Counted from the stretch's first letter, positions 2,417-42,338 are shown. The stretch is DNA of 64,000 nt from Acetatifactor sp. (GCA_045541195.1 JAZQIQ010000016.1:18264-82263); one strand, 5' to 3'. Made by a program: numbers and translations. The notes: generated by a model from the sequence alone, not told the origin.

Positions 2417-4600
2417 ATGAAGAAAATTGCACTATTGCTGGCTGGCGTGCTTCTGATGGGAAGTATTGCAGCGGCGTCAAATAATTCCATAGTGACACAG
2501 GCACAGACTACAACTCGGGGAGAGGAATCGGGGGTGCTTCAAGAAGAGAATCTTTACAAGGAAGCCATGGATGCACTGGAAGAAGAACTTCAGAAAGAAT
2601 CTGTGATGGCGGTGGTGTATATGGCTGAAGAGTATCCCCTCTACAGTTTGCCGGGACAGACAGGCTGCAAGCTTGCAGATATTCCCAGCGGAACTACGGT
2701 ATATATTGAAGATGTAGCATTCGAGGATTCTAAAGAGTATTCTGCCGGATTTGAAGCATGGTATCAGGTAAGGGTGCCATTAACGGAAGGGGTGTTTGTG
2801 GGCTATGTTGACCGCTCACATCTGGCAATTTCTGACGAGGACTTTTTGCAGTGGGAAGAAAGCTACGGTACTGACCCTGCAATCTATGAAATGGATCGTT
2901 ATACGGACGGTGCAGTGACATATACAGATGTACAGCAATTTCCTGCAAGCTATCAATCTGCGTTAATGGCTTTGAAGAGTACTTATCCGAAGTGGATTTT
3001 TGTGCCGCAGAACCTTAATCTGGACTGGAATTATGTGGTTCAGGAGGAGATGAAAGGTGGTCGGAGCTTAATCAGCACCTCTAAGGGTGATTATATGTAT
3101 ACAACTGTTCACAGTCCGGGGTGGGGCTATGCTACAGAGGGGGCATTGAAATATTATATGGATCCCAGAAACGGTCTTACCCAGGACAGAGTTTTTCAGT
3201 TTGAGCAGCTTACCTATAACGGAACCTATCACACAGAGAATGCATTGAAGATTTTCCTAAATAACACATTTATGGGAAACGGAGCTTTGATGCCACAGAC
3301 TGCGTTAACTTATTCTTACGGAATCTGGGCAATCGGAGCCAATGCAGTAAATACCAGCCCGTTTCATCTGGCTTCCCGTATCTATCAGGAGCAGGGACGT
3401 GGCACCTCACCGCTTATTTCCGGTACGTATCCGGGGTATGAAGGATACTATAATTTCTTTAATGTGAAGGCTTCAGGATCTACCAACGAAGAAATTTATG
3501 TAAATGGACTTACCTATGCAAAAAATGCAGGCTGGACGGATGGGTACAAATCTATTTTGGGAGGTGCAGAGCTTCTTGCGAAAAGTTATATTGGAGTAGG
3601 TCAGGATACCTTATATCTGCAGAAATATGATATGGTGGGGACTTTGTTCACTCACCAGTACATGCAGAATATTATGGCTCCAACCAGTGAAGGTATCAGC
3701 ACATACAAAATGTATCGGGATTCTAATGCTTTGGACAATACCTTTGTATTTAAAATCCCCGTATATAACAATATGCCGGAGTCTGCTTGTCCGGAACCGA
3801 CAGCAACTCCTACGCCAACACCAACACCTATCGTAACTCCGGCACCGAGACCAACACCGGATGCAGAGACGGTGGCAAAGGTAGAAGCCTTCGTGGAGCG
3901 TATGTACACCGTGGCCTTAGGACGTGAGGCAGATGCTTCCGGAGTAGATTACTGGACGGATTTACTGGTGTCATATGTGGCAGATGGTGCCGGGATAGCA
4001 AGAGGATTCCTTTTGGGTAGTGAGTTGGTAAGTAAGAATTACAGCAATGCGGAGTATGTGGAAGTATTATATAAGACGATTATGAGCAGGGATGCTGACG
4101 ACGCAGGATTGTCATACTGGAAAGGGATTCTGGATGCCGGAACAACCAGAGAGGCTGTGCTTGCAGGTTTTGTAAATTCTAATGAGTTTGATACGTTATG
4201 TATGAATTATTCCATTTCCAGGGGCTACATGAGAGAAGATGGAAGTATATTGAATCCCGGAATCTATATGTTTGCAAGTCGTCTGTACAGCAAGATTTTA
4301 GGAAGAGTCGGCGACAAGGACGGAAAGGAATATTGGGCACTGCAAATTGTCAACAAAGAATGCCTGCCCGAGGAAGCGGCACAAAGCTTTTTTTGGTCGG
4401 CGGAATATGTAAACAAGCAAACAAGTAATGAGGAATATATCCGTGCTCTGTATGCGACCTTTATGGATAGAGATGCCGATAGTGAGGGCATAGCGTACTG
4501 GCAGCAGGTTTTAGCCGGTGGTGTGAGCCGTGATGATGTGCTGAAAAGCTTTGCCCAGTCCACAGAGTTTAGGGGAATTATGGCATCCTACGGGTTATAG
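2417..4600 (+). CDS. Secreted SH3-like + endo-beta-N-acetylglucosaminidase-like protein with PT linker and C-terminal four-repeat DUF4214-type module
   Basis: Signal peptide MKKIALLLAGVLL; SPFHLASRIYQEQG, YYNFFNVKA, GQDTLYLQK resemble LytD/Acd-type glucosaminidases; PTATPTPTPTP linker; four repeats of F/YxxxLYxxxLxRxxDxxGxxYW ending ...ASYGL. Confidence 0.75.
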   Translation: MKKIALLLAGVLLMGSIAAASNNSIVTQAQTTTRGEESGVLQEENLYKEAMDALEEELQKESVMAVVYMAEEYPLYSLPGQTGCKLADIPSGTTVYIEDVAFEDSKEYSAGFEAWYQVRVPLTEGVFVGYVDRSHLAISDEDFLQWEESYGTDPAIYEMDRYTDGAVTYTDVQQFPASYQSALMALKSTYPKWIFVPQNLNLDWNYVVQEEMKGGRSLISTSKGDYMYTTVHSPGWGYATEGALKYYMDPRNGLTQDRVFQFEQLTYNGTYHTENALKIFLNNTFMGNGALMPQTALTYSYGIWAIGANAVNTSPFHLASRIYQEQGRGTSPLISGTYPGYEGYYNFFNVKASGSTNEEIYVNGLTYAKNAGWTDGYKSILGGAELLAKSYIGVGQDTLYLQKYDMVGTLFTHQYMQNIMAPTSEGISTYKMYRDSNALDNTFVFKIPVYNNMPESACPEPTATPTPTPTPIVTPAPRPTPDAETVAKVEAFVERMYTVALGREADASGVDYWTDLLVSYVADGAGIARGFLLGSELVSKNYSNAEYVEVLYKTIMSRDADDAGLSYWKGILDAGTTREAVLAGFVNSNEFDTLCMNYSISRGYMREDGSILNPGIYMFASRLYSKILGRVGDKDGKEYWALQIVNKECLPEEAAQSFFWSAEYVNKQTSNEEYIRALYATFMDRDADSEGIAYWQQVLAGGVSRDDVLKSFAQSTEFRGIMASYGL

Positions 4601-4621
4601 GGCGCGGGGCGAGGTGAATAG

Positions 4622-5740
4622 ATGCGTATTGGAATTGATTTGTTGTGGGTACGTCCCGGGATTGTGGGAGGTACAGAATCCTTTGTCCGTAACCTGTTGG
4701 ATGGATTCGGACAATATGATAGGGAAAATGAATATGTACTTTTTACAGCAAAGGATAATGCACATACCTTCCGAAAATACGAAACGTATCCTGCCATGAA
4801 GATGCATATGTGTCCGGTGGAATGTGCCAATCAGGGTAAGCGGATTCTGTGGGAAAACCTGTACTTAGACCGCACTGCAAAAAAGGCTCACGTGGATTTG
4901 ATGTTTATACCGGTATACAGTAAGCCTTTTACTTATGGCAGCAGAATTCCATATGTCTGTGTGATTCATGATGTACAGGCACTTCATTATCCGCAGTATT
5001 TTTCCAAAGGGAAGAGATTATTTTTGCGGTATATGTGGTGGTTTGCATGTAAGAGTTCCCAGCGGATTTTGACAGATTCTAAGTTCTGTGAGCAGGATTT
5101 GAAGAAAAGATATCCTTTTGCCGCGGAAAGAATTAAAACCATGTATGTCCCTATAATCAGTCAGGAAACGACATGTGAATTTGATATAATCGGGAAGAAA
5201 TATGGTATTTGTGAAGGGGAGTATTATTATTGCGTAAGCTCCCTGCTTCCCCATAAAAATCTTGATACGTTGCTCAGAGTGATAGCGCAGCAAAAAGAAA
5301 AAGGTATTCCTATGCCGCTGGTTATCAGCGGCGTAGGTGGTGACAAGGAGAAATTTATTGCCCGGGTGAAAGCGCTCGGAATTGAAGAATATGTAATTGA
5401 TACAGGCTTTGTATCCAATGAAGAACGTGACTGTTTATACGAACATTGTGGGCTGTTCTTATTTCCCAGTGTTTTTGAGGGATTTGGAATGCCGCCGGTG
5501 GAGGCTATGCGGAAGGGAAAAATAGTAGTAACTACCCGCTTGTCCTGTTTGGAGGAAGTGACAGAGAGTAAGGCTATATACGTGGACGATGCTTATGATG
5601 TGAAGGAATGGTTGGAAAAGATAGAACTTGCGAAGCAGAAAGAGGGCAAGAAGGAAGCCTTTGAAAAATATGAGTTGGAAAACATCATCAGGCAGTATAT
5701 GGTGTGCTGGAAGGAAATGATTAAGGGAAAACAGCACTGA
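4622..5740 (+). CDS. GT4 glycosyltransferase (WbaZ/mannosyltransferase-like)
   Basis: MRIGIDL, GGTESF, IHDVQ, PHKNL, FPSVFEGFGMPPVEAM (EX7E). Confidence 0.9.
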   Translation: MRIGIDLLWVRPGIVGGTESFVRNLLDGFGQYDRENEYVLFTAKDNAHTFRKYETYPAMKMHMCPVECANQGKRILWENLYLDRTAKKAHVDLMFIPVYSKPFTYGSRIPYVCVIHDVQALHYPQYFSKGKRLFLRYMWWFACKSSQRILTDSKFCEQDLKKRYPFAAERIKTMYVPIISQETTCEFDIIGKKYGICEGEYYYCVSSLLPHKNLDTLLRVIAQQKEKGIPMPLVISGVGGDKEKFIARVKALGIEEYVIDTGFVSNEERDCLYEHCGLFLFPSVFEGFGMPPVEAMRKGKIVVTTRLSCLEEVTESKAIYVDDAYDVKEWLEKIELAKQKEGKKEAFEKYELENIIRQYMVCWKEMIKGKQH

Positions 5741-5750
5741 TTAGTGATGC

Positions 5751-5779
5751 TTGCTATCTTTTGGGTAAGCGAGTATAAT
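5751..5779 (+). promoter_or_regulatory. Internal sigma-A promoter
   Basis: TTGCTA-N17-TATAAT upstream of the 5819 gene. Confidence 0.62.
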
Positions 5780-5818
5780 ACCTTAGAGGGTTAATGATGT
5801 GAAGTAAAGGAAAAGCAT

Positions 5819-6295
5819 ATGCAAGAACCGAACATCTACGCCAGATTATATGATGTGGTGGCAGAGAATTTAGAACATGCTGGTAAGACATTCGGATATG
5901 AGAAAGACACATTCCTGTGTGATGTAGAAGGACATCCACGGGCTCTTGTTGTGTCTAAATATACGCATTTATGCAATGAGGAATTCTTTCAGGCAGTATT
6001 TGTGGGTGCATTTAAGAGGCTTCCGGAAGAAAAGGAGCTTTCTCCGTGGCTGGATAAGATGAATCTTCCTGAGAAATGTTTTCAGGAGCAGGTACTTCGG
6101 ATGATAGAAGGATCCAGTGTGACGGCCATCAATCAGATGGAGATTGTAGACAACCCTTACTTTGAACAGAAGAAAGATTTAAAGTATCACTTGTTGGGTA
6201 AATTATACGGTTTGACGGATAAGTCTTCGCTCAGAGAGTTTGGAAAACGATTACCGGAACCGATTCAGAAGATTATCAGGAAGGTATTTCTATGA
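5819..6295 (+). CDS. Small hypothetical protein with one degenerate DUF4214-like repeat; overlaps the downstream GT4 start
   Basis: EEFFQAVFVGAFKRLPEE resembles the FVxxxYxxxLxRxxD motif; basic amphipathic C-terminus REFGKRLPEPIQKIIRKVFL; ATGA overlap with 6292 gene. Confidence 0.65.
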   Translation: MQEPNIYARLYDVVAENLEHAGKTFGYEKDTFLCDVEGHPRALVVSKYTHLCNEEFFQAVFVGAFKRLPEEKELSPWLDKMNLPEKCFQEQVLRMIEGSSVTAINQMEIVDNPYFEQKKDLKYHLLGKLYGLTDKSSLREFGKRLPEPIQKIIRKVFL

Positions 6296-7422
6296 CAATT
6301 TATATTGATGTCAGTGTGTTGACTTTAGCAACATTTGTAACAGGAATACAACGCGTGACCAGAGAGATATCCTTGCGTCTTTTGGAGTCGGAAAACTTTG
6401 ATACTGTTCTGATTCATTATAATGCTGCAGAGGATACTTATTATCGGATTGATAATTCGGCATATACAGCATATTATCGGGACGGAAAAGGTATAAAAGA
6501 GCGGATGATTACAAAGAAGAAGGTTCCTTTGAGTGAAATCGGCAGGGACTGTGTTTTCTTTGATTTGGACGCGGCATGGATGTGTCGCATGAAGCGAAGC
6601 TATTTATTGCCGATTCTTAAAAAACAGGGGGCGCGTATTGTAGCTCATATTTATGATATTATTTCCATAACCCATCCCCAGTATTGTCTGGAGAGAGGCG
6701 TTTATAATTTTATGGATTTTATTGCAGCACATTTGCAGTATGCGGATCATTTTATTGTGAATGCCCATGCTACGGTGGATGAGCTTATTAGGCTGGCACA
6801 GTCTGTTGGCGCTGATTTGCCGGAGTGCAGCGTGGTTCCGCTTGGCGCCGACTTTAAGAGCAATGAAATGGTGGAGGATAATGCTGTTCGAAATGAGGTG
6901 CTGACTGCAGCAAAGGAAAAGCCCTTTGTACTTATGGTGGGAACTATTGAACCAAGAAAGAATCACAAGCTGCTTTTGGAGGCTTATGAAAAGGGGTTGA
7001 AAGAGGCAGGATATCAGATTATTATGGCCGGATACATGGGATGGAATATGGAAGAATTTCAGTCCCGGCTTCAGACACATCCGGATTATGGACAGGGCAT
7101 ATATCATTTTGAAGGCTTAAATGATAAAGAGATTGATTATCTTTACCAACATGCAAGATGCCTTGCTTTTTTGAGTTATACGGAAGGATTTGGGCTGCCG
7201 ATTATTGAAGCACTGAATCGTGGGACACCGGTAGTTGCGGCGGATATTCCGGTATCTAAAGAAGTGGGTGGCGATGCTTGTGTATGGTTTGAGCAAGGAA
7301 ATGCAGAGGCATTATGTAAGAGCGTAATGCAGGTGAAAGCAGACGGAAGTGCCATAGATAAAAAATATCAAGTGGTAACTTGGCAGGAATCTACGGAAAT
7401 GATAATAAAAGTGTTATTATAG
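6292..7422 (+). CDS. GT4 glycosyltransferase (WbdA/WbkA-like), paralog of 7958-9106
   Basis: TGIQRV, IYDIIS, MVGTIEPRKNH, SYTEGFGLPIIEAL. Confidence 0.9.
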   Translation: MTIYIDVSVLTLATFVTGIQRVTREISLRLLESENFDTVLIHYNAAEDTYYRIDNSAYTAYYRDGKGIKERMITKKKVPLSEIGRDCVFFDLDAAWMCRMKRSYLLPILKKQGARIVAHIYDIISITHPQYCLERGVYNFMDFIAAHLQYADHFIVNAHATVDELIRLAQSVGADLPECSVVPLGADFKSNEMVEDNAVRNEVLTAAKEKPFVLMVGTIEPRKNHKLLLEAYEKGLKEAGYQIIMAGYMGWNMEEFQSRLQTHPDYGQGIYHFEGLNDKEIDYLYQHARCLAFLSYTEGFGLPIIEALNRGTPVVAADIPVSKEVGGDACVWFEQGNAEALCKSVMQVKADGSAIDKKYQVVTWQESTEMIIKVLL

Positions 7423-7439
7423 CCGGAAGGTTGGAGTAA

Positions 7440-7955
7440 GTGAATATGAAGCTATATGAGAAAATTTTTGATGTGGCCGATTCCGGAATGAAGAGTGATG
7501 GACAGAAGTTTAGTTTTGGACAGGCTGCATTTTCCAGTATATTATATAAGGACCCTCATGTGATTTCAGTAGATGAATTTGAGGGAATGGAACCGGAGGA
7601 CTTTCTGAATGCAGTATATCTGAGGTGTTTAAACCGTCTTCCGGATACGCTTGCCCGTAGGCAGATTGATAATCTGACAGCAGAGTATGAGAGACTTGTC
7701 AGATACAAAATACTGATGAATGTCAGCCGCTCAGCAGAGTTTCGGTCTTTGGATAAAACGGTAACCGGATTAAAGGAAATGCGCAAAGAACTGTTAACAA
7801 ACGGTTCCTGTAAGTTAAAGATGATTATCAGAGCGGAAGAGTTGAAGTCCGGCGTCCGTTATGTGGTTAAGACCTTCTTTATCTTTCCAATCTGGAAGCG
7901 CCTGCCTATGGATACAAAAGTGAAGATTAAGGCGTTTATCGTAAGGGAGAAGTAA
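7440..7955 (+). CDS. Small hypothetical protein with one DUF4214-like repeat; precedes a GT4
   Basis: EDFLNAVYLRCLNRLPD...ILMNVSRSAEF; basic C-terminus FPIWKRLPMDTKVKIKAFI; start may be ATG 7446. Confidence 0.65.
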   Translation: MNMKLYEKIFDVADSGMKSDGQKFSFGQAAFSSILYKDPHVISVDEFEGMEPEDFLNAVYLRCLNRLPDTLARRQIDNLTAEYERLVRYKILMNVSRSAEFRSLDKTVTGLKEMRKELLTNGSCKLKMIIRAEELKSGVRYVVKTFFIFPIWKRLPMDTKVKIKAFIVREK

Positions 7956-7957
7956 TA

Positions 7958-9106
7958 TTGCGAATTTGTATAGACATTACAGAGATGTATAAAGTGGATT
8001 TTGTATCCGGAATTCAGCGAGTGGTAATTGAAGTGACCACACGTTTTATTCGGGACGGGAAGAATCTGCTGCTGCTTGTATATGATTCAGGAAAAAGTTG
8101 TTTTGTAGAAGTGGATAATAACAAATACTATGATTTCTACACGAAAAAGTCTTCTGATAAGGATTATCTTTTACCCGAGAGATGTATGAGTGTGTCGGAC
8201 TTTGGGGAAAGCGATATCTTTTTTGATATGGACAGTGTGTGGATGAATCCACTGAAGAGAAGCTATCTTTTGCCGGAGCTGAAGAAGACAGGTTGTAAGA
8301 TTGCTGCTCATATTTATGATATTATTCCGGTAACGGATGCTCAGTACTGCCATGAGTTTACTACCTTAAGCTTTTTGGAATATATCGGAGCTCAGTTGGA
8401 AAATGCGGATTTGATTATTTCCAATGCGCAGGCCACGATTGATGCCATAGTAGAACTGATTAAGGATACGGAGATATCCAAAGTAAATGGAGCGGTAGTA
8501 AAGCTGGGAAGTGATATAAAAGGTGGCAGTAAGACCGCAAATGTAAGGGAATCCGTGAAAAAAATCGCCCGGTCGGGCAAGTATGTCCTGATGGTGGGAA
8601 CCATGGAGCCCAGAAAGAATCACAGATATGTTTTAAATGCCTTTGAAAAGGTATTGTTTGATAAAGGAATTAATCTGGTTTTTGCCGGAAGAATCGGCTG
8701 GAATGTGGAGAGTTTGATTAAAGATATAAAGTCTCATGAAAAGCTGGGGACACAGCTATTTTTTGAGAATGGCCTGTCAGATAGTGAGATTACATATTTG
8801 TATGAGAACTGTATGTTGGTAGCATTCCCCAGTTTTAATGAGGGATTTGGTCTGCCGATTATCGAGGCTTTTGCAAAAGGGGCCCCGGTGCTTGCTGCGG
8901 ATATTCCGGTGTTAAGGGAAGTTGGCGGTGAATACTGCAAATATTTCTCTTTGGAGGATGTTAATACTTTTGCGGATTTAGTGAAGAATTATATTGAGAA
9001 TCCTGAGGAATATGCGAAAGATAAAGAAAGAATCAAGTCATATCAAAGATATACTTGGGATGCGTGTGCAGAAAGTATGTTTGAAGCATTAATGACGGTG
9101 AAATAA
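7958..9106 (+). CDS. GT4 glycosyltransferase, paralog of 6292-7422
   Basis: SGIQRV, IYDIIP, MVGTMEPRKNH, FPSFNEGFGLPIIEAF; TTG start behind GGGAG. Confidence 0.9.
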   Translation: MRICIDITEMYKVDFVSGIQRVVIEVTTRFIRDGKNLLLLVYDSGKSCFVEVDNNKYYDFYTKKSSDKDYLLPERCMSVSDFGESDIFFDMDSVWMNPLKRSYLLPELKKTGCKIAAHIYDIIPVTDAQYCHEFTTLSFLEYIGAQLENADLIISNAQATIDAIVELIKDTEISKVNGAVVKLGSDIKGGSKTANVRESVKKIARSGKYVLMVGTMEPRKNHRYVLNAFEKVLFDKGINLVFAGRIGWNVESLIKDIKSHEKLGTQLFFENGLSDSEITYLYENCMLVAFPSFNEGFGLPIIEAFAKGAPVLAADIPVLREVGGEYCKYFSLEDVNTFADLVKNYIENPEEYAKDKERIKSYQRYTWDACAESMFEALMTVK

Positions 9107-21123: not shown

Positions 21124-21124
21124 A

Positions 21125-22786: not shown

Positions 22787-22895
22787 TGTGTTTGTCCTTT
22801 CTCTGTGGTTAAGGTTTTGGAGATTGGCTATTGTTGCGGGGAGAAGAGTATGATAGACTTTGGATATATAATAAAGTTCAGAAGGCGAGTGTGTA

Positions 22896-29300: not shown

Positions 29301-29318
29301 ATACATTTCTCCTTTTTG

Positions 29319-33486: not shown

Positions 33487-33525
33487 AGTACGGACTGTAA
33501 TGCGTTACGCATTACAGTCCGTACT
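33487..33525 (-). terminator. 18-bp perfect hairpin overlapping the stop of paralog 4
   Basis: AGTACGGACTGTAATGCG-TTA-CGCATTACAGTCCGTACT; T-rich tail on minus strand. Confidence 0.75.
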
Positions 33526-35419
33526 CGCTTTTGATTCCCTGAAATTCTGTAGATTGTGCGAATACGTCTAAAAGTGTTTCACGGCTGATTCCGTTTTGCA
33601 GGTAACTCTTCCAGAAGGAAAGTCCTTCCACATCAGCTTCCCGGGCTACAAAGGTACGGTATAATGTTATGATATACTTTTCGTCAGAGGTCTGTTTGTT
33701 TATGTATTCCGGGGAGTGGAAAAAGTTTTGTGCAGCACCTTTCGGGGTATAAGTGCCGGAAGAAATAAGGATTGTCCAATAATCGATTCCGTCCCGGTCA
33801 CCGTCTCTTTCAAGGATGGTAGTGTAGAGTCTGGTTGCAAAGCGGTAGATTCCGGCATTGACTGCAACACCGTTGGTTTTCATCAGACCGCGGGAAATAC
33901 CATATTCTTTACATAGGTCAAAAAACTCGGAAGAATTGACAAAGCCAGCCAACACATCTTCTCTGGAAGCATTGTTTTGCAGTAGACTGTTCCAATAAGA
34001 AAGACCGGCGGCGTCTGCTTCCCGGTTAAAGAAGGTACTGTATAATATTTGAATATATTTGGTATTGTCACAGCTTTGGGCAGTAAATTCCGGGCTTAAG
34101 ATAAAGCTTTGCGCAAGACCGGCGCCATCCTGTCTTCCGGAGACTAACAGCTCGGCCCAGAAGCTGACTCCGCTGGCATCCGCAGTCCGTCCCAGTGCGA
34201 TTGTGTACATGCGTTCCACAAAACTATATATCTTTGTCAGAGCTTCTTTGTCCGGCGTTTTCGTAGTGAAGGGGGATGCTGCCCCTACGACCGTATAGAT
34301 TGCCCCCTGATAGGTAATGGTTTCGGGTAAGGTGTCTGTTCCGTAAAGTCCTGTCACCAGCAAATCACCCAGGGAGGAATTCCGGTTAACAATGTAATAC
34401 GTGTTGTTACCGTAGATGAAATACGGGGAAATGTAATTGGTACCGGAGATGAGGTCGTAGGGGGTGGCTGGGATCATTCCCTGATAAATATTGGCTATAT
34501 TATGATCCATATATTTGTCTGCTAAAAGGGTAATACGGCTTTTGCAGTAAAAGTCATAGTAGCAGTTGCTTGAGTAACCGTCATCGCAGGCCGCGTCCAG
34601 TTCATACCATACACCATGGAGCTTTACGATATTCCATGCGTGGTTACTTCCGGATATGATTGCGGATTCAATCCCTACGGCATTACTTAGCATAGAGAAT
34701 ACTTTCGCGTAACCGGTACATGTAGTCTTTCCCAGACAGGCCATGCTGTATGCGGATTGATCGTATTCGTTATAGGTATAGCTTGTATTTTTACATACAA
34801 TATCATGCGCCAATTTCACTTTCTCCTCCGGCTTGGAAGAGGTGTTAAAACGTGCAACCCAAGTATCGATTATTGAAGTGAATGCATCGGTGTAAGAAGC
34901 TCTGGTTTCACCATCACGGAACTTGGAATAGAGTGACAGGGAACCGCCACCTGGGGAATAGGTGATATACGGCTCCAGAAAATAGTACTGTGGATTACTG
35001 TAAATAAACAAAGTCATTATGGTACGAATCCGGGATGTGGGAATGGAGTCTGCGCAGGAAATCCAGGAGATTCCGGAAAAATCGATGTCCGTAGTTGCCA
35101 GCGTAATGCAAAAGGACTCCATGGAATCCCAGAATTCTTTTTCGCTTACGGATAAATAGTTGTAATAATAATCGCTGCTGAATTTGGTCCAGTAGGCGCG
35201 GTCAGCGTCTGTATATTTATGTATGTCAATATTGTATTGGGGGGAAGAATATTTGTAGGATGAGGATTCATCCAATAAAACGGCGGTAACAGGCTCAAAA
35301 CCGGCACGTTCACTGCAAGAGTGCACTCCCTCAGGTGCAGCAGAGACAGAGAGCGGTTGTGACAGAAGATTTATTATGAGAATCGTAGTTAATATTACTT
35401 TTTTGATACCTTTCAACAT
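33512..35419 (-). CDS. Secreted transglutaminase-like protein with DUF4214-type module (paralog 4)
   Basis: TTCTGYAK...NHAWNIV...WYELD; ends ...SEYGL; start ATG 35419. Confidence 0.85.
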   Translation of the reverse strand: MLKGIKKVILTTILIINLLSQPLSVSAAPEGVHSCSERAGFEPVTAVLLDESSSYKYSSPQYNIDIHKYTDADRAYWTKFSSDYYYNYLSVSEKEFWDSMESFCITLATTDIDFSGISWISCADSIPTSRIRTIMTLFIYSNPQYYFLEPYITYSPGGGSLSLYSKFRDGETRASYTDAFTSIIDTWVARFNTSSKPEEKVKLAHDIVCKNTSYTYNEYDQSAYSMACLGKTTCTGYAKVFSMLSNAVGIESAIISGSNHAWNIVKLHGVWYELDAACDDGYSSNCYYDFYCKSRITLLADKYMDHNIANIYQGMIPATPYDLISGTNYISPYFIYGNNTYYIVNRNSSLGDLLVTGLYGTDTLPETITYQGAIYTVVGAASPFTTKTPDKEALTKIYSFVERMYTIALGRTADASGVSFWAELLVSGRQDGAGLAQSFILSPEFTAQSCDNTKYIQILYSTFFNREADAAGLSYWNSLLQNNASREDVLAGFVNSSEFFDLCKEYGISRGLMKTNGVAVNAGIYRFATRLYTTILERDGDRDGIDYWTILISSGTYTPKGAAQNFFHSPEYINKQTSDEKYIITLYRTFVAREADVEGLSFWKSYLQNGISRETLLDVFAQSTEFQGIKSEYGL

Positions 35420-35614: not shown

Positions 35615-35683
35615 GAGAGCAATTAAGATAAAATGTAATATTGGAAAATTATGTTTATTATTAAGAAAGAAGAGGATATTAAA

Positions 35684-36718
35684 ATGAAAAATGCTTTAAT
35701 TACCGGTATTAATGGTCAGGACGGTTCTTATTTAGCAGAACTTTTATTGGAGAAGGGCTATAATGTATATGGCATTATGAGAAGAAAGGCTGTTGTTGAC
35801 TACGGCAATGCAGAGCACTTAAAGGACAAGGTTCACTTTATCTATGCAGATATGACTGACGTTGTTTCTTTGATTAACGCTATGAGAATCTCTGATGCAG
35901 ATGAAGTGTACAACCTTGCAGCACAGTCATTCGTAGCTACCTCATGGGAACAGCCTCTTGCAACAGCTCAGATTGACGCTGTTGGTGTAACCAATATGTT
36001 GGAAGCTATCAGAACCGTAAAGCCTTCTTGCCGTTTCTATCAGGCATCTACTTCAGAGATGTTTGGTTTAGTGCAGGAGATTCCACAGAAGGAGACTACT
36101 CCTTTCTACCCAAGAAGTCCTTATGGTGTAGCTAAGTTATACGGTCATTGGATTACCAAGAACTATAGAGAGAGTTATGACATGTATGCTTGTTCCGGTA
36201 TCTTATTCAATCACGAAAGTGAGAGAAGAGGTAAGGAATTCGTTACCCGTAAGATTACCGATGCAGTTGCACGTATCAAATTAGGTGTACAGGATCATTT
36301 AGAGTTAGGTAACATGGATTCTAAGCGTGACTGGGGTCACTCTAAGGATTATGTTTACGCTATGTGGTTAATGCTTCAGCAGGAAACTCCGGATGATTAT
36401 GTGGTAGCTACCAACGAGACCAGAACTGTTCGTGAGTTCGTAGAAACTGCATTTGCAAAGGCAGGCATCACTGTAGAGTGGTCAGGAACAGGTGTAGATG
36501 AGGTTGGTAAGGATGCAGCTACCGGTAAGGTAATCGTTAAGGTGAATAAAGACTTCTTCAGACCTGCAGAGGTAGATATCTTAATCGGTGATCCTTCAAA
36601 GGCTGAGAAGAACCTTGGTTGGGTTCGTCAGATTCCGTTCGACGAATTAGTAGAGCGTATGGTTAAGAACGATTTAGAATTAGTTCGTAAGGAAATCGCT
36701 TATAAGAATATTCAGTAA
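35684..36718 (+). CDS. gmd: GDP-mannose 4,6-dehydratase
   Basis: ALITGINGQDGSYLAELLLEKGY, NLAAQSFV, YQASTSEMFG, PFYPRSPYGVAK, LFNHES, KRDWGH; start ATG 35684. Confidence 0.96.
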   Translation: MKNALITGINGQDGSYLAELLLEKGYNVYGIMRRKAVVDYGNAEHLKDKVHFIYADMTDVVSLINAMRISDADEVYNLAAQSFVATSWEQPLATAQIDAVGVTNMLEAIRTVKPSCRFYQASTSEMFGLVQEIPQKETTPFYPRSPYGVAKLYGHWITKNYRESYDMYACSGILFNHESERRGKEFVTRKITDAVARIKLGVQDHLELGNMDSKRDWGHSKDYVYAMWLMLQQETPDDYVVATNETRTVREFVETAFAKAGITVEWSGTGVDEVGKDAATGKVIVKVNKDFFRPAEVDILIGDPSKAEKNLGWVRQIPFDELVERMVKNDLELVRKEIAYKNIQ

Positions 36719-36723
36719 TGTGC

Positions 36724-36757
36724 GAAAAGGAATTCTGAAAAGAATTCCTTTTCTTTT
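36724..36757 (+). terminator. Intra-operon terminator-like hairpin between gmd and rmd
   Basis: GAAAAGGAATTCT-GAAA-AGAATTCCTTTTC followed by TTTT. Confidence 0.7.
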
Positions 36758-36771
36758 GAAGGGAAAAGAAT

Positions 36772-37710
36772 ATGAAAAAAGGGTTGGTTATTGGTGCAGC
36801 AGGCTTTGTTGGTAAGTATCTTTTAGAGGAAATGCATGCTTCCGGAATGGAATGTTATGCAACAAAGCTGGCGCATGAGAAACTGGAAATATCGTATACA
36901 ACCGTGTATGATCTGGATATTATGAGCAAGGAGGATATTTTATCACTCCTTTTTGAGGTGCGTCCGGACTATATTTTCCATCTGGCTGCCCAGAGTTCTG
37001 TGGGGCTTGCGTGGAAGAATCCGGGACTTACGGTAGACATTAATATTAAAGGCAGTCTGAATGTGATGGATGCCATTCGTGAACTGGATTATAAGCCTCG
37101 TGTGCTTCTGATTGGTTCCGGTGAGGAATATGGTCATATCAGACCGGGAGAGACTCCCATTACGGAAAATAATCTTCTTCGACCGGGTAATATTTATGCG
37201 GCAACCAAGGCTTGTCAGAATATGATTGGTAATATTTATTCCAAAGCATATGATATGGAGCTGATGATGGTCCGTGCGTTTAATCATATCGGACCGGGAC
37301 AGGCACCCATGTTTGTAGTATCTGACTTCTGTAAGCAGGTGGCTGAGATTGAAAAGGGACTCCGGGAACCGGTGATGAAGGTTGGAAATCTCGCCGCAAA
37401 GCGTGATTTTACAGATGTTCGTGATGTGGTAAAGTCCTATGTGAAGCTGGTGGCAGCAGGACGGGCCGGTGAGACCTATAACGTTGGTAGCGGTAATGCG
37501 AAGGCGATTCAGGAGATTCTGGATATGATTGTATCTATGTCTACTGCTACGATTAATGTGGAAATCGATCCTGCTAAGCTTAGGCCTGTGGATGTACCGA
37601 TTATTGAGGCTGATATTGCCAAGATTAAGGAGCTTACCGGATGGGAACCGAAGATTCCGTTAGAGCAGACAATTCAGGAGACTCTGGACTATTGGCGTGC
37701 TAACTTATAG
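36772..37710 (+). CDS. rmd: GDP-4-dehydro-6-deoxy-D-mannose reductase-like SDR
   Basis: VIGAAGFVG, HLAAQSSV, GSGEEYG, YAATK, RAFNHIGPGQ, RDFTDVRDVV; follows gmd; no Fcl-like gene in window. Confidence 0.78.
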   Translation: MKKGLVIGAAGFVGKYLLEEMHASGMECYATKLAHEKLEISYTTVYDLDIMSKEDILSLLFEVRPDYIFHLAAQSSVGLAWKNPGLTVDINIKGSLNVMDAIRELDYKPRVLLIGSGEEYGHIRPGETPITENNLLRPGNIYAATKACQNMIGNIYSKAYDMELMMVRAFNHIGPGQAPMFVVSDFCKQVAEIEKGLREPVMKVGNLAAKRDFTDVRDVVKSYVKLVAAGRAGETYNVGSGNAKAIQEILDMIVSMSTATINVEIDPAKLRPVDVPIIEADIAKIKELTGWEPKIPLEQTIQETLDYWRANL

Positions 37711-37720
37711 GAGGTGTTTT

Positions 37721-38605
37721 ATGAGAAGTGACGGATTATTTCAAACCAATGATGTAACGAAGTCGGACAGATATCTTCATACGCCCAGCAGTTTTGCAAG
37801 ACAGAATCTTTTATATGTGCAGGAAGTGGGCAGACTTACCAGTTTAAATCAGCATAGATGTATTCGTGAAGGTCTGGATTCCCTGCTTTTGATGGTTGTA
37901 TTAAAAGGAAAGGGCGTTCTTACAATAAAGGATAAGGAATATAATATGTCAGCGGGGAATATTGCGTTGATAGATTGTAGAGAGCACTATGAGCATATTA
38001 GTGATGTGGAGGATGCATGGACATTATGCTGGGTGCATTTTAACGGTGTTTCTGCAAGAAATTATTATGAGCTCTTTTTAAAGTATAGCAAGGGTGTAAA
38101 TGTATTTTCTGTAGAGGATACGTTTGTCTGGGAGAATACAATCGATTCTTTGATGGGAAAGCAGCAGAATAAGAGTGTCATTGCTGAAATGCAATGCGGA
38201 GAGTTGCTTTTAAAACTTCTAAGTGATACAATCAGTCATGTTGCTGATGCATCCATTCTTCGAGATGAAGAGAACCGAAAGCTGGTTCAGGATGTGAGAG
38301 AATATCTTCATGAGAATTATGCAGAGACAGATGTGGTTCAGAAGGCAGGAGAGATGCATTCTTTTTCCTGTGAGGCATTGAATCATTTGTTCCGAGAATA
38401 CTTTGGCATGACTATGGAAGAATATGTGAGCAATAGACGGTTCTTAGTTGCAAAAGAGTTACTTCGATTCTCCATTAAGTCTGTGGCTGAGGTGGCACAG
38501 GAATCCGGTATTCGTGATGTGATTGCCATGCAACAGATGTTTTACGATAAAGAGAATATGACCGCTGATGAATACCGTAGCAGATGGGCACAGTGGATCA
38601 GATAA
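37721..38605 (+). CDS. AraC family regulator (cupin-type sensor + divergent HTH)
   Basis: N-terminal LLMVVLKGKG...CWVHFNG; C-terminal LFREYFGMT...AKELLRFS...AEVAQESG; start ATG 37721 behind GAGGTG. Confidence 0.8.
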   Translation: MRSDGLFQTNDVTKSDRYLHTPSSFARQNLLYVQEVGRLTSLNQHRCIREGLDSLLLMVVLKGKGVLTIKDKEYNMSAGNIALIDCREHYEHISDVEDAWTLCWVHFNGVSARNYYELFLKYSKGVNVFSVEDTFVWENTIDSLMGKQQNKSVIAEMQCGELLLKLLSDTISHVADASILRDEENRKLVQDVREYLHENYAETDVVQKAGEMHSFSCEALNHLFREYFGMTMEEYVSNRRFLVAKELLRFSIKSVAEVAQESGIRDVIAMQQMFYDKENMTADEYRSRWAQWIR

Positions 38606-38622
38606 TTGAGGAAGGCAGAAGA

Positions 38623-39933
38623 ATGAATATTGTTTTATTATCCGGTGGTTCCGGCAAAAGACTTTGGCCCTTGTCCAATGACATTCGATCAAAGCAATTT
38701 ATTAAGATCTTCAAGAAAGAGAATGATGAGTATGAATCCATGGTGCAGAGAGTGTATCATCAGATTCAGGAAGTGGATAAGGATGCAACCGTCACCATTG
38801 CTACTTCTAAGACCCAGGTTTCAGCAATTCGTAATCAGTTGGGTGAGCAGGTGGGTATCTGTGTGGAGCCTTGCAGAAGAGATACTTTCCCTGCAATTGC
38901 TCTGGCAACAGCATACTTACATGATGTACAGGGAATTTCAGAGGATGACTCCGTGGTAGTATGTCCTGTGGATCCTTATGTAAATACGGATTATTTTGAG
39001 GCGTTGAAGGAGCTGGGAAGACTTGCACAGGAGGGGGATGCCAATCTTGTGCTGATGGGTATTGAACCTACCTATCCAAGTGAGAAATACGGATATATCA
39101 TTCCTACCGATAAAGAGCAGGTAAGTAAGGTAGATACCTTTAAGGAGAAGCCGGATGCAAAGACCGCAGAAGAGTATATCTCTCAGGGGGCACTTTGGAA
39201 CGGTGGTGTTTTTGCATACAAGTTAAAGTATGTTCTTGAGAAGGCGCATGAGTTGATTGATTTTGTGGATTATCAGGATTTGTTTAACAAGTATGATACA
39301 CTGACCAAAATCAGCTTTGACTATGCAGTAGTTGAGAAAGAAGATAATATTCAGGTGCTCAGATTTGGCGGTGAATGGAAGGATTTGGGAACCTGGAATA
39401 CCTTAACCGAAGCTATGTCGGAGAACACTATCGGTAAGGTAATGTACAACGACAAGTGTGAGGACATTCATGTTATCAATGAATTGGATGTGCCGGTGCT
39501 TTGTATGGGTGTAAAGGATGTAATCGTATGTGCCAGTGCAGAAGGTATCCTGGTATCGGACAAGGAGCAGTCTGCGGCAATTAAGCCATATGTAGATCAG
39601 ATTGACCAGCAGATTATGTTTGCAGAAAAGTCGTGGGGAAGCTTCCAGGTTATGGATGTAGAGAATGGTAATATGACCATTAAGGTTACCTTAAATCCGG
39701 GGAACTCCATGAATTACCATAGTCATGAAATGCGTGAAGAGGTATGGACAGTTCTCAGTGGTAAGGGCTATGTGGTTCTGGACGGTGAGAAGAAGGCTGT
39801 TCAGACCGGAGATGTAGTAACCATGCCTATCGGCTGTAAGCATACCATTGTTGCGGAGACAGAGCTTAAGGTAATGGAAGTACAGATTGGTTCTGAAATC
39901 AGTGTTCACGATAAGATTAAGTGGGACTTATAA
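38623..39933 (+). CDS. manC: Mannose-1-phosphate guanylyltransferase with C-terminal cupin
   Basis: LLSGGSGKRLWPLS, EPCRRDTFPAI, FKEKP, ISFDYAVVEK, WKDLGTW, EKSWGSF, HSHEMREEVW. Confidence 0.9.
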   Translation: MNIVLLSGGSGKRLWPLSNDIRSKQFIKIFKKENDEYESMVQRVYHQIQEVDKDATVTIATSKTQVSAIRNQLGEQVGICVEPCRRDTFPAIALATAYLHDVQGISEDDSVVVCPVDPYVNTDYFEALKELGRLAQEGDANLVLMGIEPTYPSEKYGYIIPTDKEQVSKVDTFKEKPDAKTAEEYISQGALWNGGVFAYKLKYVLEKAHELIDFVDYQDLFNKYDTLTKISFDYAVVEKEDNIQVLRFGGEWKDLGTWNTLTEAMSENTIGKVMYNDKCEDIHVINELDVPVLCMGVKDVIVCASAEGILVSDKEQSAAIKPYVDQIDQQIMFAEKSWGSFQVMDVENGNMTIKVTLNPGNSMNYHSHEMREEVWTVLSGKGYVVLDGEKKAVQTGDVVTMPIGCKHTIVAETELKVMEVQIGSEISVHDKIKWDL

Positions 39934-39980: not shown

Positions 39981-42338
39981 TTATCTCACTGCGATAATTC
40001 CGTATTCGGCACATAAGTTATTAAACTCGTTGGAATAGATGAATCCATTTAAGATATCTTTGCGAGGTGTTCCCAAAGCCATGGCTTTCAACCAGGCTGC
40101 CATGCCACCGGTATCTGCCTCGCGGTTGAAGAAAGAACTGTACAGTATCTGGATATATTTGCTATCGGTTGTGTTTCTTGCTTCGAACTCCCCGGAGTTT
40201 ATGAAATGATTTCCTACATCCGTACCAACCAGACTGCCGTTAAGCAAAGCGGTAGACCAGTAATCTAAACCGCTTTCGTCCGCAGAACGGCTTAAGGCAA
40301 CGGTGTACATTCGCTCGATAAATTTACGGACAAGACCTTCCTGATTTTTGATGGCAAGGATTCCGTAACTGTTACAGAGAGCATTGAATTCCTGGGAAGA
40401 GATGAATCCATTTAGCAGAGCTTGTCTGGTATATCCCTGCGCAAAAAGTTCTAACCAATAAGAACGCCCACTATCATCAGCCTCTCGATTGAGAATTGCA
40501 CGATATAAGGTGTCAATATAGTCGCTGTCACTTAGGTTTCTTCCGATAAACTCTGTACCATTGATGAAGTCGCTGGCAACGGAGGCTCCATCAGAGCGAA
40601 GTGCAATAAGTTCGGCAGTCCAGAAATTTAATCCACCCTCTTCGGCAGAGCGGTTCAGAACGATGGTATACATGCGTTCTACGAAGTTTCTTACATTCTG
40701 TTCCTGCACGCTGGGTGCTTCTCCGGAAGTAGGGAGTGAAACGGTAATAACACAAACTGCCGCTTTCGTGTTGTCCGTAGTCTTTACAATAACACCTGCC
40801 ATGCCATTGCCCACAGCAGTTACGAAACCGTTACTGTCCACGGTAATAACGGAAGTGTCGGAGCTACTCCAGGTGATTTCTGCGTTATCTGCATCTGCCG
40901 GAGTTACGGTAGCGGCCAGTTGCAAGGTCTGACCTTGTGCAGTAAGGATTGCACTTTCGGCATTCAGAGTAATGTCAGTAACCAGAGACACTGCAGAAGG
41001 GTCATAATCTGTGGCAGAAATCTTACTTAAAACGCCGGACTGGAATTTTTCAGTAGTATAACGTTCCTGCAATTCGGCAGCTGCAAAGGTGTTAGATCCT
41101 CGAAAAGCAATGTTGTTACTTGCATCGCAATAGTAGTATTTGCCGTTTAATAAAACGATATTGTAGGTGTGGGCACCGGCATCAAGTCCCATCAGAATAC
41201 GATTCTCGATACCCAGCTCACGAAGCATTCGGTAGAAGAGGAGAGCATAGCCCTGACATGTTGCTTTTCCGTTACATAATGCTGAGTAGGCGGTATGATA
41301 AATTTCTTCGACTGTACCGATATAGCTCACATTATTATGGATGTAATTCATACAGGCAGTAACTTTATCATGCGGACTGGCCGTCTTAGCGTATGCAAGA
41401 GGTCCACCGCTTGCAAAGAGGGAGGAAAGCTTGGCTTCAAAAGCAGCCTCCTGCTCGGGGGTGGTGATATATAAGGTGCCGGAAGTGTCCAAGGTAATTG
41501 CAGAAAGTATTTCTCCACGATAATTGTTGTCCTCATAATTGGTAGAAGTGGCTCTGGAACCCAAAAAGCTTTGCTCCAGATAATCCCCTTCCGTAGCAGG
41601 AATACTTCCCTGGCTTGAATAGAAATCGAAAATATTGTAGGGGTCAAACACATATTGATTGTAGAGCGTAGAGGCATAATCATCCCGCACGGAATCCGCA
41701 ACTGCATGCGATGTGTAGAAAACATATTCGCCGTTTTGTTTATTTAAAAAAACCTTTCTCATGGCGGAAAGAAGCTCGTCCGTGGTCAGGTATAAATCGC
41801 TTGGTTTTGTAGCACCGAAATCCGTATAGTTTGCGCCTGCTTCAGCCGGGATTACCGTGATAGGGATGGAAGCGAATACACGGTAGCCTTTGTTTTCTGA
41901 ATAACGGAACAGGGTCAGATAGTAATTGTCACCGGCATCAGTGGCTTTTAATCCCTTGATGCACACCTTGTGTGGGGTATCTACAGACGGGGACCAGACG
42001 ATTGCGTGCTCATTGTTGTAGATAAGAGCGTTTTCGTCCAGAGTAGTACCTACGGTAATTGTCCAAGTATGGTGGATGGAGTAATAGTTGGAAAGCTCTT
42101 CAGGTCTGATGATGCCCTCATCCGGGTCTATATAAGCATAGGTCAGGGAAAGTGTCTCACCCTCATGGACCGTAATACTCTGAAAGGTCTCGTTATTGTC
42201 ATTAATGATTCCGCCGTACCAGTAGTAAAAATATGGAGTTCTTGTTAGTTCCTCCGCATGTGAGGTAGTGCCTGTTGTCATTATTATGCACAAGGCAAGA
42301 ATCAGATAGAATTTTAAAAGATGCCATTTTCTTTGCAT
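39981..42338 (-). CDS. Secreted transglutaminase-like + Big_2 Ig-like + DUF4214-type module protein
   Basis: Signal peptide; ATCQGYALL...AHTYNIV...YYCD; TLQLAATVTPADADNAEITWSSSDTSVITVDSNG (Big_2-like); two AB repeat pairs ending ...AEYGIIAVR. Confidence 0.82.
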   Translation of the reverse strand: MQRKWHLLKFYLILALCIIMTTGTTSHAEELTRTPYFYYWYGGIINDNNETFQSITVHEGETLSLTYAYIDPDEGIIRPEELSNYYSIHHTWTITVGTTLDENALIYNNEHAIVWSPSVDTPHKVCIKGLKATDAGDNYYLTLFRYSENKGYRVFASIPITVIPAEAGANYTDFGATKPSDLYLTTDELLSAMRKVFLNKQNGEYVFYTSHAVADSVRDDYASTLYNQYVFDPYNIFDFYSSQGSIPATEGDYLEQSFLGSRATSTNYEDNNYRGEILSAITLDTSGTLYITTPEQEAAFEAKLSSLFASGGPLAYAKTASPHDKVTACMNYIHNNVSYIGTVEEIYHTAYSALCNGKATCQGYALLFYRMLRELGIENRILMGLDAGAHTYNIVLLNGKYYYCDASNNIAFRGSNTFAAAELQERYTTEKFQSGVLSKISATDYDPSAVSLVTDITLNAESAILTAQGQTLQLAATVTPADADNAEITWSSSDTSVITVDSNGFVTAVGNGMAGVIVKTTDNTKAAVCVITVSLPTSGEAPSVQEQNVRNFVERMYTIVLNRSAEEGGLNFWTAELIALRSDGASVASDFINGTEFIGRNLSDSDYIDTLYRAILNREADDSGRSYWLELFAQGYTRQALLNGFISSQEFNALCNSYGILAIKNQEGLVRKFIERMYTVALSRSADESGLDYWSTALLNGSLVGTDVGNHFINSGEFEARNTTDSKYIQILYSSFFNREADTGGMAAWLKAMALGTPRKDILNGFIYSNEFNNLCAEYGIIAVR

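Follow-up and report, generated by a model that had tools for sequence, protein, structure and literature searches.

The last ~240 residues of seven secreted proteins, encoded in a 64,000-nucleotide stretch of DNA from the gut bacterium Acetatifactor sp. (the window, below), form a common tail that probably holds these proteins on the cell surface. On balance we lean towards a non-covalent retention module; the best candidate for its ligand is a deoxyhexose-containing polymer specified by the same locus, an assignment for which the support is genomic. The tail is a single recurring module with a predicted all-helical fold; it is used throughout the genome, and across genera it both co-occurs and is syntenic with one glycan pathway.

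All seven ORFs listed in an initial annotation of this DNA are present, with coordinates in agreement. P0001 (727 aa; 2417..4600, plus strand) carries a signal peptide, a GH73-like N-acetylglucosaminidase passenger that matches the Atl glucosaminidase (PDB 6fxo, E 5e-11) and a SagB-like enzyme (E 2e-9), a Pro/Thr linker and the C-terminal DUF4214 double-domain module (residues 484-727, about nt 3866-4597; PF13946 E 3.2e-52). P0002 (24134..26872, plus strand; 912 aa with the Met codon at 24134 as start, in an ORF that opens at 23969) has a GLUG-like, Gly/Asn-rich passenger (Glug E 0.0024, below the cut-off) ahead of its module (about nt 26138-26869; PF13946 E 1.1e-45). The other five genes are on the minus strand. 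P0003 (785 aa; 26949..29306) combines a transglutaminase-like core (Transglut_core E 1.7e-6) and a Pro-Thr/Pro-Ser stalk of ~140 residues with the module (about nt 26952-27683; PF13946 E 4.3e-49). Transglut_core was also matched in P0004 (644 aa; 29435..31369, module about nt 29438-30169), P0006 (635-642 aa; 33512..35419/35440, module about nt 33515-34246) and P0007 (785 aa; 39981..42338, module about nt 39996-40721), the last of which also contains Big_2. P0005 (638-645 aa; 31487..33403/33424, module about nt 31490-32221) is a close paralogue of P0004, the two tails being 86% identical. The three passenger types proposed earlier are present, with the GLUG match sub-threshold. Signal peptides, called with a Kyte-Doolittle heuristic, were likewise found on all seven, i.e., a basic n-region and a hydrophobic h-region within the first 40 residues. 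The PF13946 profile matched every protein at 148-176 bits (gathering threshold 23.2 bits; whole-protein E 1e-44 to 1e-52), with three to four stretches at each C-terminus.

The seven tails align without large gaps, and the motif F-x-E-R-x-Y-x3-L-x-R-x2-D-x2-G-x3-W occurs four times in the common tail. Six of the seven end in YGL-stop, as had been noted, and P0007 ends in YGIIAVR. The tail had been described as four repeats; this holds for the motif copies, but the AlphaFold2 model (pLDDT 96.1), from an alignment with the P0004 module as its first row, shows two tandem eight-helix domains with a phycobilisome (PBS)-linker fold. In Foldseek searches of the PDB, each half superposed on one PBS linker domain over ~112 residues (TM 0.56-0.60, target-normalised; rmsd 3.3-3.9 Å; probability 1.00; identity 9-17%). 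PBS-linker chains made up 49 of the best 50 of 244 hits; RsaA, to whose N-terminal domain a likeness had been suggested, contributed no chain to those 50. The relation to PF00427 (PBS linker) is at the superfamily level only: no match to that profile was reported in the seven proteins, and precomputed PF00427 assignments exist on two distant homologues. With a pI of 4.1-5.0 the modules are acidic, and 14% of their residues are aromatic, a composition that speaks against a purely electrostatic attachment to anionic polymers of the wall.

Seven proved to be an undercount of the proteins that carry this tail. Nine module genes lie on the 85-kb contig, two of them just upstream of the window, and the genome contains at least 32; a module HMM matched 38 ORFs, of which ~32 are full-size, and almost all of these have a signal peptide, end with the module and finish in YGL-stop. 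Their passengers include GH73, CHAP, M23, GH10, pectate lyase, LRR, CAP and C1 peptidase domains, families typical of wall-anchored or surface proteins. The earlier statement that the seven lack LPxTG, SLH and C-terminal transmembrane anchors was borne out: SLH (PF00395) and CWB2 (CW_binding_2, PF04122) had no match in these proteins or in the whole genome, Gram_pos_anchor had none in the seven, and their C-termini showed no sortase-type tail (LPXTG-like motif, hydrophobic segment, basic end). The genome encodes four sortases, yet a regex scan found only about two plausible LPXTG-like substrates, located elsewhere. This genome-wide survey of anchoring systems covered SLH, CWB2 and sortase/LPXTG anchors. 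As far as surface retention is concerned, the anchoring role proposed earlier is supported indirectly, by the position of the module on secreted proteins, the surface-type passengers and the absence of SLH and CWB2.

The glycan locus around these genes includes a plus-strand operon (122..9106) that encodes an initiating transferase (Bac_transf, 122-778), an epimerase, one GT2 and three GT4 enzymes, together with a pair of small ORFs (5819-6295 and 7440-7955). The P0001 gene is embedded in this operon, flanked by the GT2 gene and the first GT4 gene. Downstream on the same strand are wzm (9156-9932; ABC2_membrane) and wzt (9932-11260; ABC_tran plus a Wzt_C cap-binding domain), the latter of a subtype that co-occurs with DUF4214 expansions. 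From 13325 to 24017 there are further GT4 genes, a polytopic 689-aa protein, a GT2 with GtrA, Acyl_transf_3 and, on the minus strand, an MBOAT and AlgX-like pair; these genes probably act in elongating the glycan, adding its side chains and O-acylating it. A plus-strand cassette of gmd (35651-36718; TIGR01472, 473.9 bits, above the cut-off), an rmd-like GDP-4-keto-6-deoxymannose reductase gene (36772-37710), an AraC regulator (37697-38605) and manC (38584-39933) sits among the module genes at 35651..39933. The presence of 9 of 32 module genes on this single contig departs from an even spread (binomial p = 4e-8), and no full-size module gene was found on either contig (C9, C48) that carries the genome's two other Wzt_C-type loci.

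Directly after wzm and wzt lies an eighth DUF4214 protein of the window, which the initial annotation had left out. This protein, P0008 (673 aa; 11295..13316, plus strand), has no signal peptide and is cytoplasmic. A single DUF4214 (PBS-linker-like) domain (residues ~71-194, nt 11505-11876; PF13946 E 1.9e-19, 69.9 bits), whose fold match to PBS linkers is weaker than that of the secreted module, is followed by a basic amphipathic stretch, a ~230-residue coiled coil with SMC-like matches and a C-terminal SAM methyltransferase (Methyltransf_23). It is likely to be the chain-capping or terminating enzyme of the ABC-transporter pathway. DUF4214 is also fused to a cytoplasmic pathway enzyme in genome G033 and probably to a glycosyltransferase in G091. 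Its presence on a cytoplasmic terminator hints that, inside the cell as well as outside, the fold binds either the polymer or some component of the machinery that assembles it.

These observations are consistent with a scheme in which the surrounding glycosyltransferases would assemble a deoxyhexose-containing polymer on undecaprenyl phosphate, P0008 would cap it and the Wzm/Wzt pair of the window would export it. Module proteins would leave the cell by Sec via their N-terminal signal peptides, and the C-terminal tail would then bind the polymer and keep its passenger (an autolysin, transglutaminase-like enzyme, GLUG/LRR protein or others) at the wall. Several findings count against a glycan as the ligand. 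The nearest solved fold is a protein-binding domain rather than a lectin, P0008 lacks two Trp residues conserved in the secreted modules, and in several DUF4214-rich genomes the terminator orthologues have no DUF4214 domain.

The first of these findings bears on the main rival reading, which we consider rather unlikely: that the locus is a pathway like those of S-layer glycosylation (slg), whose capped polymer is moved by an O-antigen-ligase-type enzyme onto these secreted proteins (e.g., onto their Pro/Thr/Ser linkers), with the DUF4214 tail serving in protein-protein assembly or docking, as in PBS linkers. The Bac_transf initiator, the wzm/wzt pair with Wzt_C and the methyltransferase terminator do match slg clusters (reviewed in PMC2943079), Pro-Thr/Ser linkers are present in P0001 and P0003, a gene outside the window, 3.5 kb upstream of it, encodes a Wzy_C-like membrane protein (E 8.8e-5), and the region from 42 to 63 kb is filled with PMT_2-like and family-less membrane proteins that may be GT-C-like. 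However, the linkers are short in most of the paralogues, and the Wzy_C match scored 22.8 bits, under the Pfam cut-off of 31.7. No dominant or adjacent S-layer structural gene was recognised, the DUF4214 domains on cytoplasmic pathway enzymes would be left unexplained, and the 32 or more module proteins would still need another anchoring device. Glycosylation of the secreted proteins and binding of their tails to the glycan are not mutually exclusive.

Retention through the locus glycan draws support from comparisons among genera, where the coupling to the wzm/wzt/gmd/rmd pathway was seen in both co-occurrence and synteny. DUF4214 has a near all-or-none distribution: it was present in 12 of 301 genera and not in a genome of the same genus (G213), and expansions were found in 8 of 300 sister genera besides the source genome. 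Of the 8 expanded genomes, 7 have a full-length orthologue of the window wzt, compared with 10 of the other 292 (p = 3.7e-9); the figures were similar for an orthologue of rmd (7/8 versus 18/292, p = 9e-8) and for the two together (7/8 versus 5/292, p = 1.5e-10). According to an RpoB tree, the expanded genomes fall in at least five separate lineages. The exception, G091, is expanded but has no rmd, and its wzt lacks the C-terminal domain. The Acetatifactor locus L013 has the same operon order, including a P0001 orthologue; module genes adjoin gmd-rmd-AraC-manC in Acetatifactor, Frisingicoccus and others, and adjoin wzm-wzt in three further genomes. The sugar pathways vary among genomes, with L-rhamnose genes beside the cassette in G008, and so do not define the conserved feature of the ligand.

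It is unlikely, in the light of these data, that the tail anchors proteins to peptidoglycan or another ubiquitous wall component, with the glycan neighbourhood a by-product of envelope-gene clustering. Such a ligand would suit the passengers that are peptidoglycan hydrolases (GH73, CHAP, M23). It would also suit both the 23 of 32 module genes that are scattered away from glycan genes and the five genomes that have wzt and rmd orthologues with no expansion, two findings that we counted against the locus glycan. It does not, however, predict the patchy distribution of the module or its link to one wzt-plus-rmd type in at least five lineages, and the acidic pI makes teichoic acid a less likely ligand.

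A point in favour of retention is that the tail itself can be exchanged. In a DUF4214-free sister species, the GH73 orthologue has a different C-terminus of 240 residues (a domain swap), and in another genus a cadherin-like domain and a dockerin replace the DUF4214 tail. That the tail is no anchor at all, but instead a C-terminal element for sorting, folding or solubility, or a domain through which proteins released to the medium oligomerise, is highly improbable: the strikingly conserved YGL-stop does recall some sorting signals, and DUF4214 occurs in cytoplasmic enzymes and Gram-negative RTX proteins, but a well-packed double domain of 240 residues (pLDDT 96) far exceeds known sorting signals in size, the dockerin that takes its position is a known attachment module, and in relatives the module is sometimes non-terminal or present in several copies per protein.

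The system had been put forward as new, which the literature does not support. The secreted "Cluster.1/Cluster.3" proteins of segmented filamentous bacteria (SFB) have a DUF4214 C-terminus with four conserved regions matching PF13946 (Pamp et al., 2012; PMC3371716), and that tail has been named a likely surface anchor (PMC12780176; bioRxiv 10.64898/2026.04.29.720676). In both cases a single Clostridia genome encodes numerous secreted proteins with the four C-terminal regions and a predicted helical, PBS-linker-like fold (2KY4), classical wall-binding motifs are missing from the genome, and an anchoring role has been proposed. For SFB, neither a ligand nor a linkage to a glycan pathway was reported. 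The present case differs in its host family (Lachnospiraceae) and passengers, in the quantitative association that couples the module to a single pathway (wzm/wzt with gmd/rmd), and in the additional presence of the domain on a cytoplasmic pathway enzyme.

SLH domains bind pyruvylated SCWP, and CWB2 domains bind PSII in C. difficile, in both cases non-covalently. Like them, the DUF4214 module is non-catalytic and repeated, occurs at one end of dozens of secreted proteins and has polymer genes linked to it, but it has no kinship to them in sequence or fold, is all-alpha and acidic, and has a putative ligand proposed from genomic context. PBS linkers (PDB 3nph, 3osj, 3pru, 2ky4), each corresponding to one module half, bind inside phycobiliprotein rings, whereas the source organism has no phycobiliproteins. 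In Pseudomonas putida KT2440, the RTX-DUF4214 protein Psh is also exported, encoded beside O-antigen capping and biosynthesis genes and proposed, in a 2026 preprint, to sit on a surface glycan, its suggested O-antigen binding resting on modelling (bioRxiv 10.64898/2026.09.02.748959); unlike the present proteins, it is a single protein of a Gram-negative host, leaves by a T1SS and shields the cell from phage. The pathway itself resembles WbdD-type and slg systems (E. coli O9a; Geobacillus stearothermophilus WsaE), in which Wzt recognises a methyl cap (PMC2943079), in its Wzt_C-containing wzm/wzt, coiled-coil methyltransferase and Bac_transf initiator. It differs in that P0008 has an N-terminal DUF4214 domain rather than kinase or glycosyltransferase domains, and in that the nucleotide-sugar genes are those of the GDP-deoxyhexose (gmd/rmd) route.

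All seven ORFs singled out in the initial annotation (P0001-P0007, starting at 2417, 24134, 26949, 29435, 31487, 33512 and 39981) were found intact in the window. Each also matched PF13946 (DUF4214), as had been proposed, with three to four C-terminal stretches per protein and whole-protein E values of 1e-44 to 1e-52 against Pfam. The last ~240 residues of the seven proteins (the module, or tail) aligned almost without gaps and contained four copies of the motif F-x-E-R-x-Y-x3-L-x-R-x2-D-x2-G-x3-W; six proteins ended in YGL-stop and the seventh in YGIIAVR. All seven N-termini had a basic n-region followed by a hydrophobic stretch, as in Sec signal peptides, so that a hydropathy heuristic, used both here and for the genome-wide set, agreed with the claimed secretion in 7/7 cases. 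SLH, CWB2, an LPXTG-type feature and a hydrophobic C-terminus were looked for in P0001-P0007 and found in none of them, bearing out the reported absence of a conventional anchor. The three types of passenger, i.e., the remainder of each secreted protein, were likewise as described: a GH73-like glucosaminidase in P0001 (PDB 6fxo Atl, E 5e-11, with AtlE and Acp also matched), a sub-threshold GLUG match in P0002, and transglutaminase-like passengers in the other five (P0003-P0007). P0005, a close paralogue of P0004, had no passenger Pfam match of its own at E <= 0.01. A Pro-Thr/Pro-Ser stalk (roughly 140 residues, window 27700-28085), a possible O-glycosylation or spacer region, sets P0003 apart from the other three tandem transglutaminase-like paralogues.

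In alignment A1, the 23 paralogous modules of this genome had a mean column identity of 63%. All were acidic, with a pI of 4.1-5.0 and a net charge between -4 and -26, and aromatic residues made up 14%. An AlphaFold2 model of the module (mean pLDDT 96.1, pTM 0.89) contained 16 helices, laid out as 4+4, a short linker, and 4+4. When this model was compared with the PDB using Foldseek, phycobilisome (PBS) linker chains made up 49 of the best 50 matches listed, with TM scores of 0.56-0.60 (target-normalised), rmsd values of 3.3-3.9 Å and a probability of 1.00. One isolated linker domain (3nph, 3osj, 3pru, 2ky4) spans ~112 residues, i.e., half a module, and the "four repeats" are therefore predicted to form two eight-helix domains in tandem, with two DUF4214 sub-repeats per domain. 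The description of a four-repeat module thus stands for the motif, which is present four times, and not for the fold. A comparison with the N-terminal domain of RsaA had been suggested; no RsaA chain was among the best 50 Foldseek PDB matches. A search of PDB sequences with the module profile gave no match at E <= 1.

The assembly containing the window (C16:18264-82263) comprises 3.59 Mb in 52 contigs, and a Pfam scan of the whole genome found 128 DUF4214 stretches. A module HMM detected 38 ORFs, of which about 32 were full-size (640-2400 aa), nearly all of these having a signal peptide, the module at the extreme C-terminus and the YGL ending. Because several contigs end inside DUF4214 modules (C11:1-3564, C15:28074-32231, C17, C33 and C38), this repeat is collapsed in the assembly, and ~32 is a minimum count. 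Contig C16 represents 2.4% of the genome, yet carries 9/32 module genes (binomial p = 4e-8), two of them upstream of the window; the other 23 are scattered, with no adjoining glycan genes. In a genome-wide survey that covered SLH, CWB2 and sortases with their LPXTG substrates, no SLH or CWB2 domain was found, and a motif scan gave only about two credible LPXTG-type substrates for the four sortases.

The module had been put forward as a candidate new anchor, and this idea is not new, since it had already been raised for segmented filamentous bacteria (SFB). Nineteen secreted SFB proteins have four conserved C-terminal regions that match PF13946, with a predicted fold like that of PBS linkers (Pamp et al., 2012; PMC3371716), and later SFB papers describe DUF4214 as a likely surface-anchoring domain in a genome without SLH and other typical motifs (PMC12780176; bioRxiv 10.64898/2026.04.29.720676). 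A 2026 preprint proposed, with modelled binding, that the RTX-DUF4214 protein Psh of P. putida binds O-antigen, and noted that DUF4214 is frequently adjacent to O-antigen genes (10.64898/2026.09.02.748959). What is new here is the scale in one genome, the two-domain architecture, the evidence from domain swaps, and a quantitative, multi-lineage link of DUF4214 to one export and sugar pathway.

The passengers of module homologues include transglutaminase-like, CHAP, M23, GH10 with CBM, pectate lyase, LRR, CAP, C1 peptidase, ricin-type lectin and Big_2 domains, a repertoire typical of displayed proteins. In G213, a second genome from the genus of the window, the P0001 GH73 passenger has a 53%-identical orthologue whose last ~240 residues are an unrelated domain; this substitute is single-copy and was therefore ruled out as a rival anchor family. 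In a homologue from a further genome (G020), the tail position is occupied by a cadherin-like domain and a type I dockerin. Since the latter is a known attachment module, its presence in place of the tail supports a targeting or retention role, as judged from domain architecture. On balance, we favour the reading that the tail retains Sec-exported proteins on a polymer that is capped by P0008, a cytoplasmic DUF4214 protein, and exported by the Wzm/Wzt pair of the window. After export by Sec, the acidic, aromatic-rich double domain would hold the proteins on a neutral deoxyhexose polymer, itself capped by P0008 and exported by Wzm/Wzt; the DUF4214 domain of P0008 may recognise the same polymer or an assembly-line partner.

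The P0008 gene (11295-13316, +), which was absent from the initial annotation, lies directly 3' of wzt. Its product has no signal peptide and consists of an N-terminal DUF4214 domain (two stretches, E 1.9e-19), a coiled coil of ~230 residues and a C-terminal SAM methyltransferase, with a basic amphipathic stretch (aa ~208-235) between the DUF4214 domain and the coiled coil. The N-terminal domain aligned in register with a half-module (20-28% identity, eleven invariant positions in common), and lacked the two Trp residues conserved in modules. Its model (pLDDT 85) had the same helix pattern, and PBS linkers were again the first Foldseek matches, with weaker superposition than for the module. 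When close relatives of this domain were sought in a 5.8-billion-protein index, only P0008 itself was returned. By analogy, P0008 looks like a WbdD-like chain terminator or molecular ruler, although the domain order is opposite to that of WbdD. In orthologues from other genera, the DUF4214 part is often absent. A separate 623-aa protein (locus L010, G091:C17, 14072-15943), also without a signal peptide, has a DUF4214 pair at its end, and its N-terminus matches an unannotated ORF of ~355-380 aa that is found repeatedly in the wzm-wzt cassettes of other genera and may encode a glycosyltransferase. Together with P0008, it would give the pathway two kinds of fusion between a cytoplasmic enzyme and DUF4214.

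By its gene content, the window is one large cell-envelope glycan region. It encodes a Bac_transf initiator, an epimerase, a GT2 and many GT4 enzymes; wzm (9156-9932) and wzt (9932-11260), the latter with a Wzt_C cap-binding domain; GT2 with GtrA, and large polytopic proteins; Acyl_transf_3; gmd (35651-36718, TIGR01472 above cut-off), an rmd-like reductase (36772-37710), an AraC regulator (37697-38605) and manC (38584-39933); and a long run of membrane proteins, either assigned to DUF6056, DUF6020 or PMT_2 or left unassigned. On the opposite strand (19744-22708, -), an MBOAT protein is paired with a 527-aa AlgX/SGNH-like protein, likely an extracytoplasmic O-acylation system for the polymer; in the Acetatifactor locus L012 this pair is kept (73% and 53% identity) beside a module gene and gmd-rmd. 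The ~12 large polytopic membrane proteins at 42502-63649 (DUF6056 x2, DUF6020 x2, PMT_2 x2 and several without a family match), among which lies a single GT2, look like a battery of putative GT-C-like extracytoplasmic transferases. Two small ORFs without signal peptides (5819-6295 and 7440-7955, +) each lie just upstream of a GT4 paralogue; they were considered as degenerate DUF4214 proteins, which was not established (one sub-repeat-like stretch each, hhalign E ~0.03, probability <2%). The first is kept in Acetatifactor at the same position, with 63% identity. Just upstream of the window (C16:9048-18301) are an AraC regulator, an fcl-like GDP-fucose synthase, two large membrane proteins, a CapD-like dehydratase and a 537-aa membrane protein with a sub-threshold Wzy_C (O-antigen ligase) match, which bears on whether the polymer acceptor is protein, lipid or wall. 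This weak Wzy_C-like protein, and a parts list that resembles slg clusters (PMC2943079), would suit the main rival explanation, i.e., that the neighbourhood carries out S-layer-type protein glycosylation while the tail docks protein to protein, like PBS linkers. We consider that explanation unlikely as a whole; it is compatible with retention on the polymer.

The distribution of DUF4214 was compared across 301 genomes representing 300 genera, i.e., the window's own and 300 of the same family. DUF4214 occurred in only 12/301, and was expanded in eight besides the window's own; G213 had none. Presence of Wzt_C was uninformative as a marker because it occurred in 179/301, and only a test at the level of orthologues discriminated. 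A full-length orthologue of the window wzt (50-69% identity, C-terminal domain included) was found in 7/8 expanded genomes and 10/292 others (Fisher p 3.7e-9), an orthologue of rmd (>= 55% identity) in 7/8 and 18/292 (p 9e-8), and both together in 7/8 and 5/292 (p 1.5e-10), statistics that treat genera as independent. The proposed linkage to such glycan genes therefore held within the family. G213 had neither orthologue. In an RpoB tree built from 26 members of this set, the expanded genomes fell in at least five separate lineages, with the window's genome sister to the DUF4214-free G213, which argues that shared ancestry alone would not explain the association. There were exceptions to the favoured reading: G091 is expanded, but lacks rmd and has a truncated wzt; five genomes have both orthologues without expansion; in several genomes the terminator has no DUF4214 domain; and the sugar genes vary between genomes. 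Binding of the tail to peptidoglycan or another ubiquitous polymer fits poorly with this patchy distribution and with the wzt/rmd association, and seems to us improbable; that the tail has no anchoring function is the least likely explanation, and can be given very little credence.

More tentatively, DUF4214 might represent a new all-α fold for recognising carbohydrate, at work both inside and outside the membrane. Its cytoplasmic copy would place the coiled-coil capping enzyme on the polymer as it grows, and the extracellular tandem pair would fasten >30 surface proteins to the polymer once exported and linked to the wall. Together, anchor and ligand would make up one transferable package of surface architecture, gained and lost together in gut Clostridia, including SFB.

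To our knowledge, many abundant gut Clostridia, including Lachnospiraceae and SFB, lack SLH, CWB2 and large sortase repertoires; SFB are also immunologically important. The question addressed is by what means such organisms keep autolysins, adhesin-like proteins and T-cell antigens at the cell surface. The long-standing remark that DUF4214 may be an anchor becomes a concrete, testable hypothesis that names a pathway for the candidate ligand (gmd/rmd together with one type of wzm/wzt), with a natural negative control in a same-genus species that has neither component. If it is correct, the tail would be a new wall-binding module, usable for surface display in gut commensals, and would help to interpret roughly 38,000 protein clusters with DUF4214.

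A scan of GTDB species genomes found the module in Acetatifactor spp., Clostridium sp. CAG:632, Christensenellaceae, Saccharofermentans and others, and in a cultured carrier, Frisingicoccus caecimuris DSM 28559. At E <= 1e-3 the family comprises 37,830 clusters (50% identity), of which 5,010 still match at E <= 1e-30; some proteins have several modules. Among the loci fetched, 12/75 had either wzm or both gmd and rmd no more than 10 kb away, against a roughly estimated chance expectation of 2-3%. In Acetatifactor, the P0001 orthologue occupies the same place within the same operon. The wzm-wzt cassette is flanked by module genes in G090, G145, G076 and G091; module genes adjoin gmd-rmd-AraC-manC in five genomes, and in another three they adjoin wzm-wzt.

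Occurrence of the module on phage lysins would have strongly supported wall binding; a tblastn search of 50,697 phage records found none, and in BFVD the domain occurred only in uncharacterised "DUF4214" proteins. The one good IMG/VR match, contig L117, with a module-rmd-AraC arrangement beside a prophage end, was rejected as a phage module: it is host DNA, and the lysin of the adjoining prophage uses CW_7 and LysM. At 1169-5212 of this contig, the prophage end adjoins three host module genes and rmd-AraC. It carries the GH25 + CW_7 + LysM lysin and a reverse transcriptase next to a DUF4376 protein, the last two possibly representing a diversity-generating retroelement.
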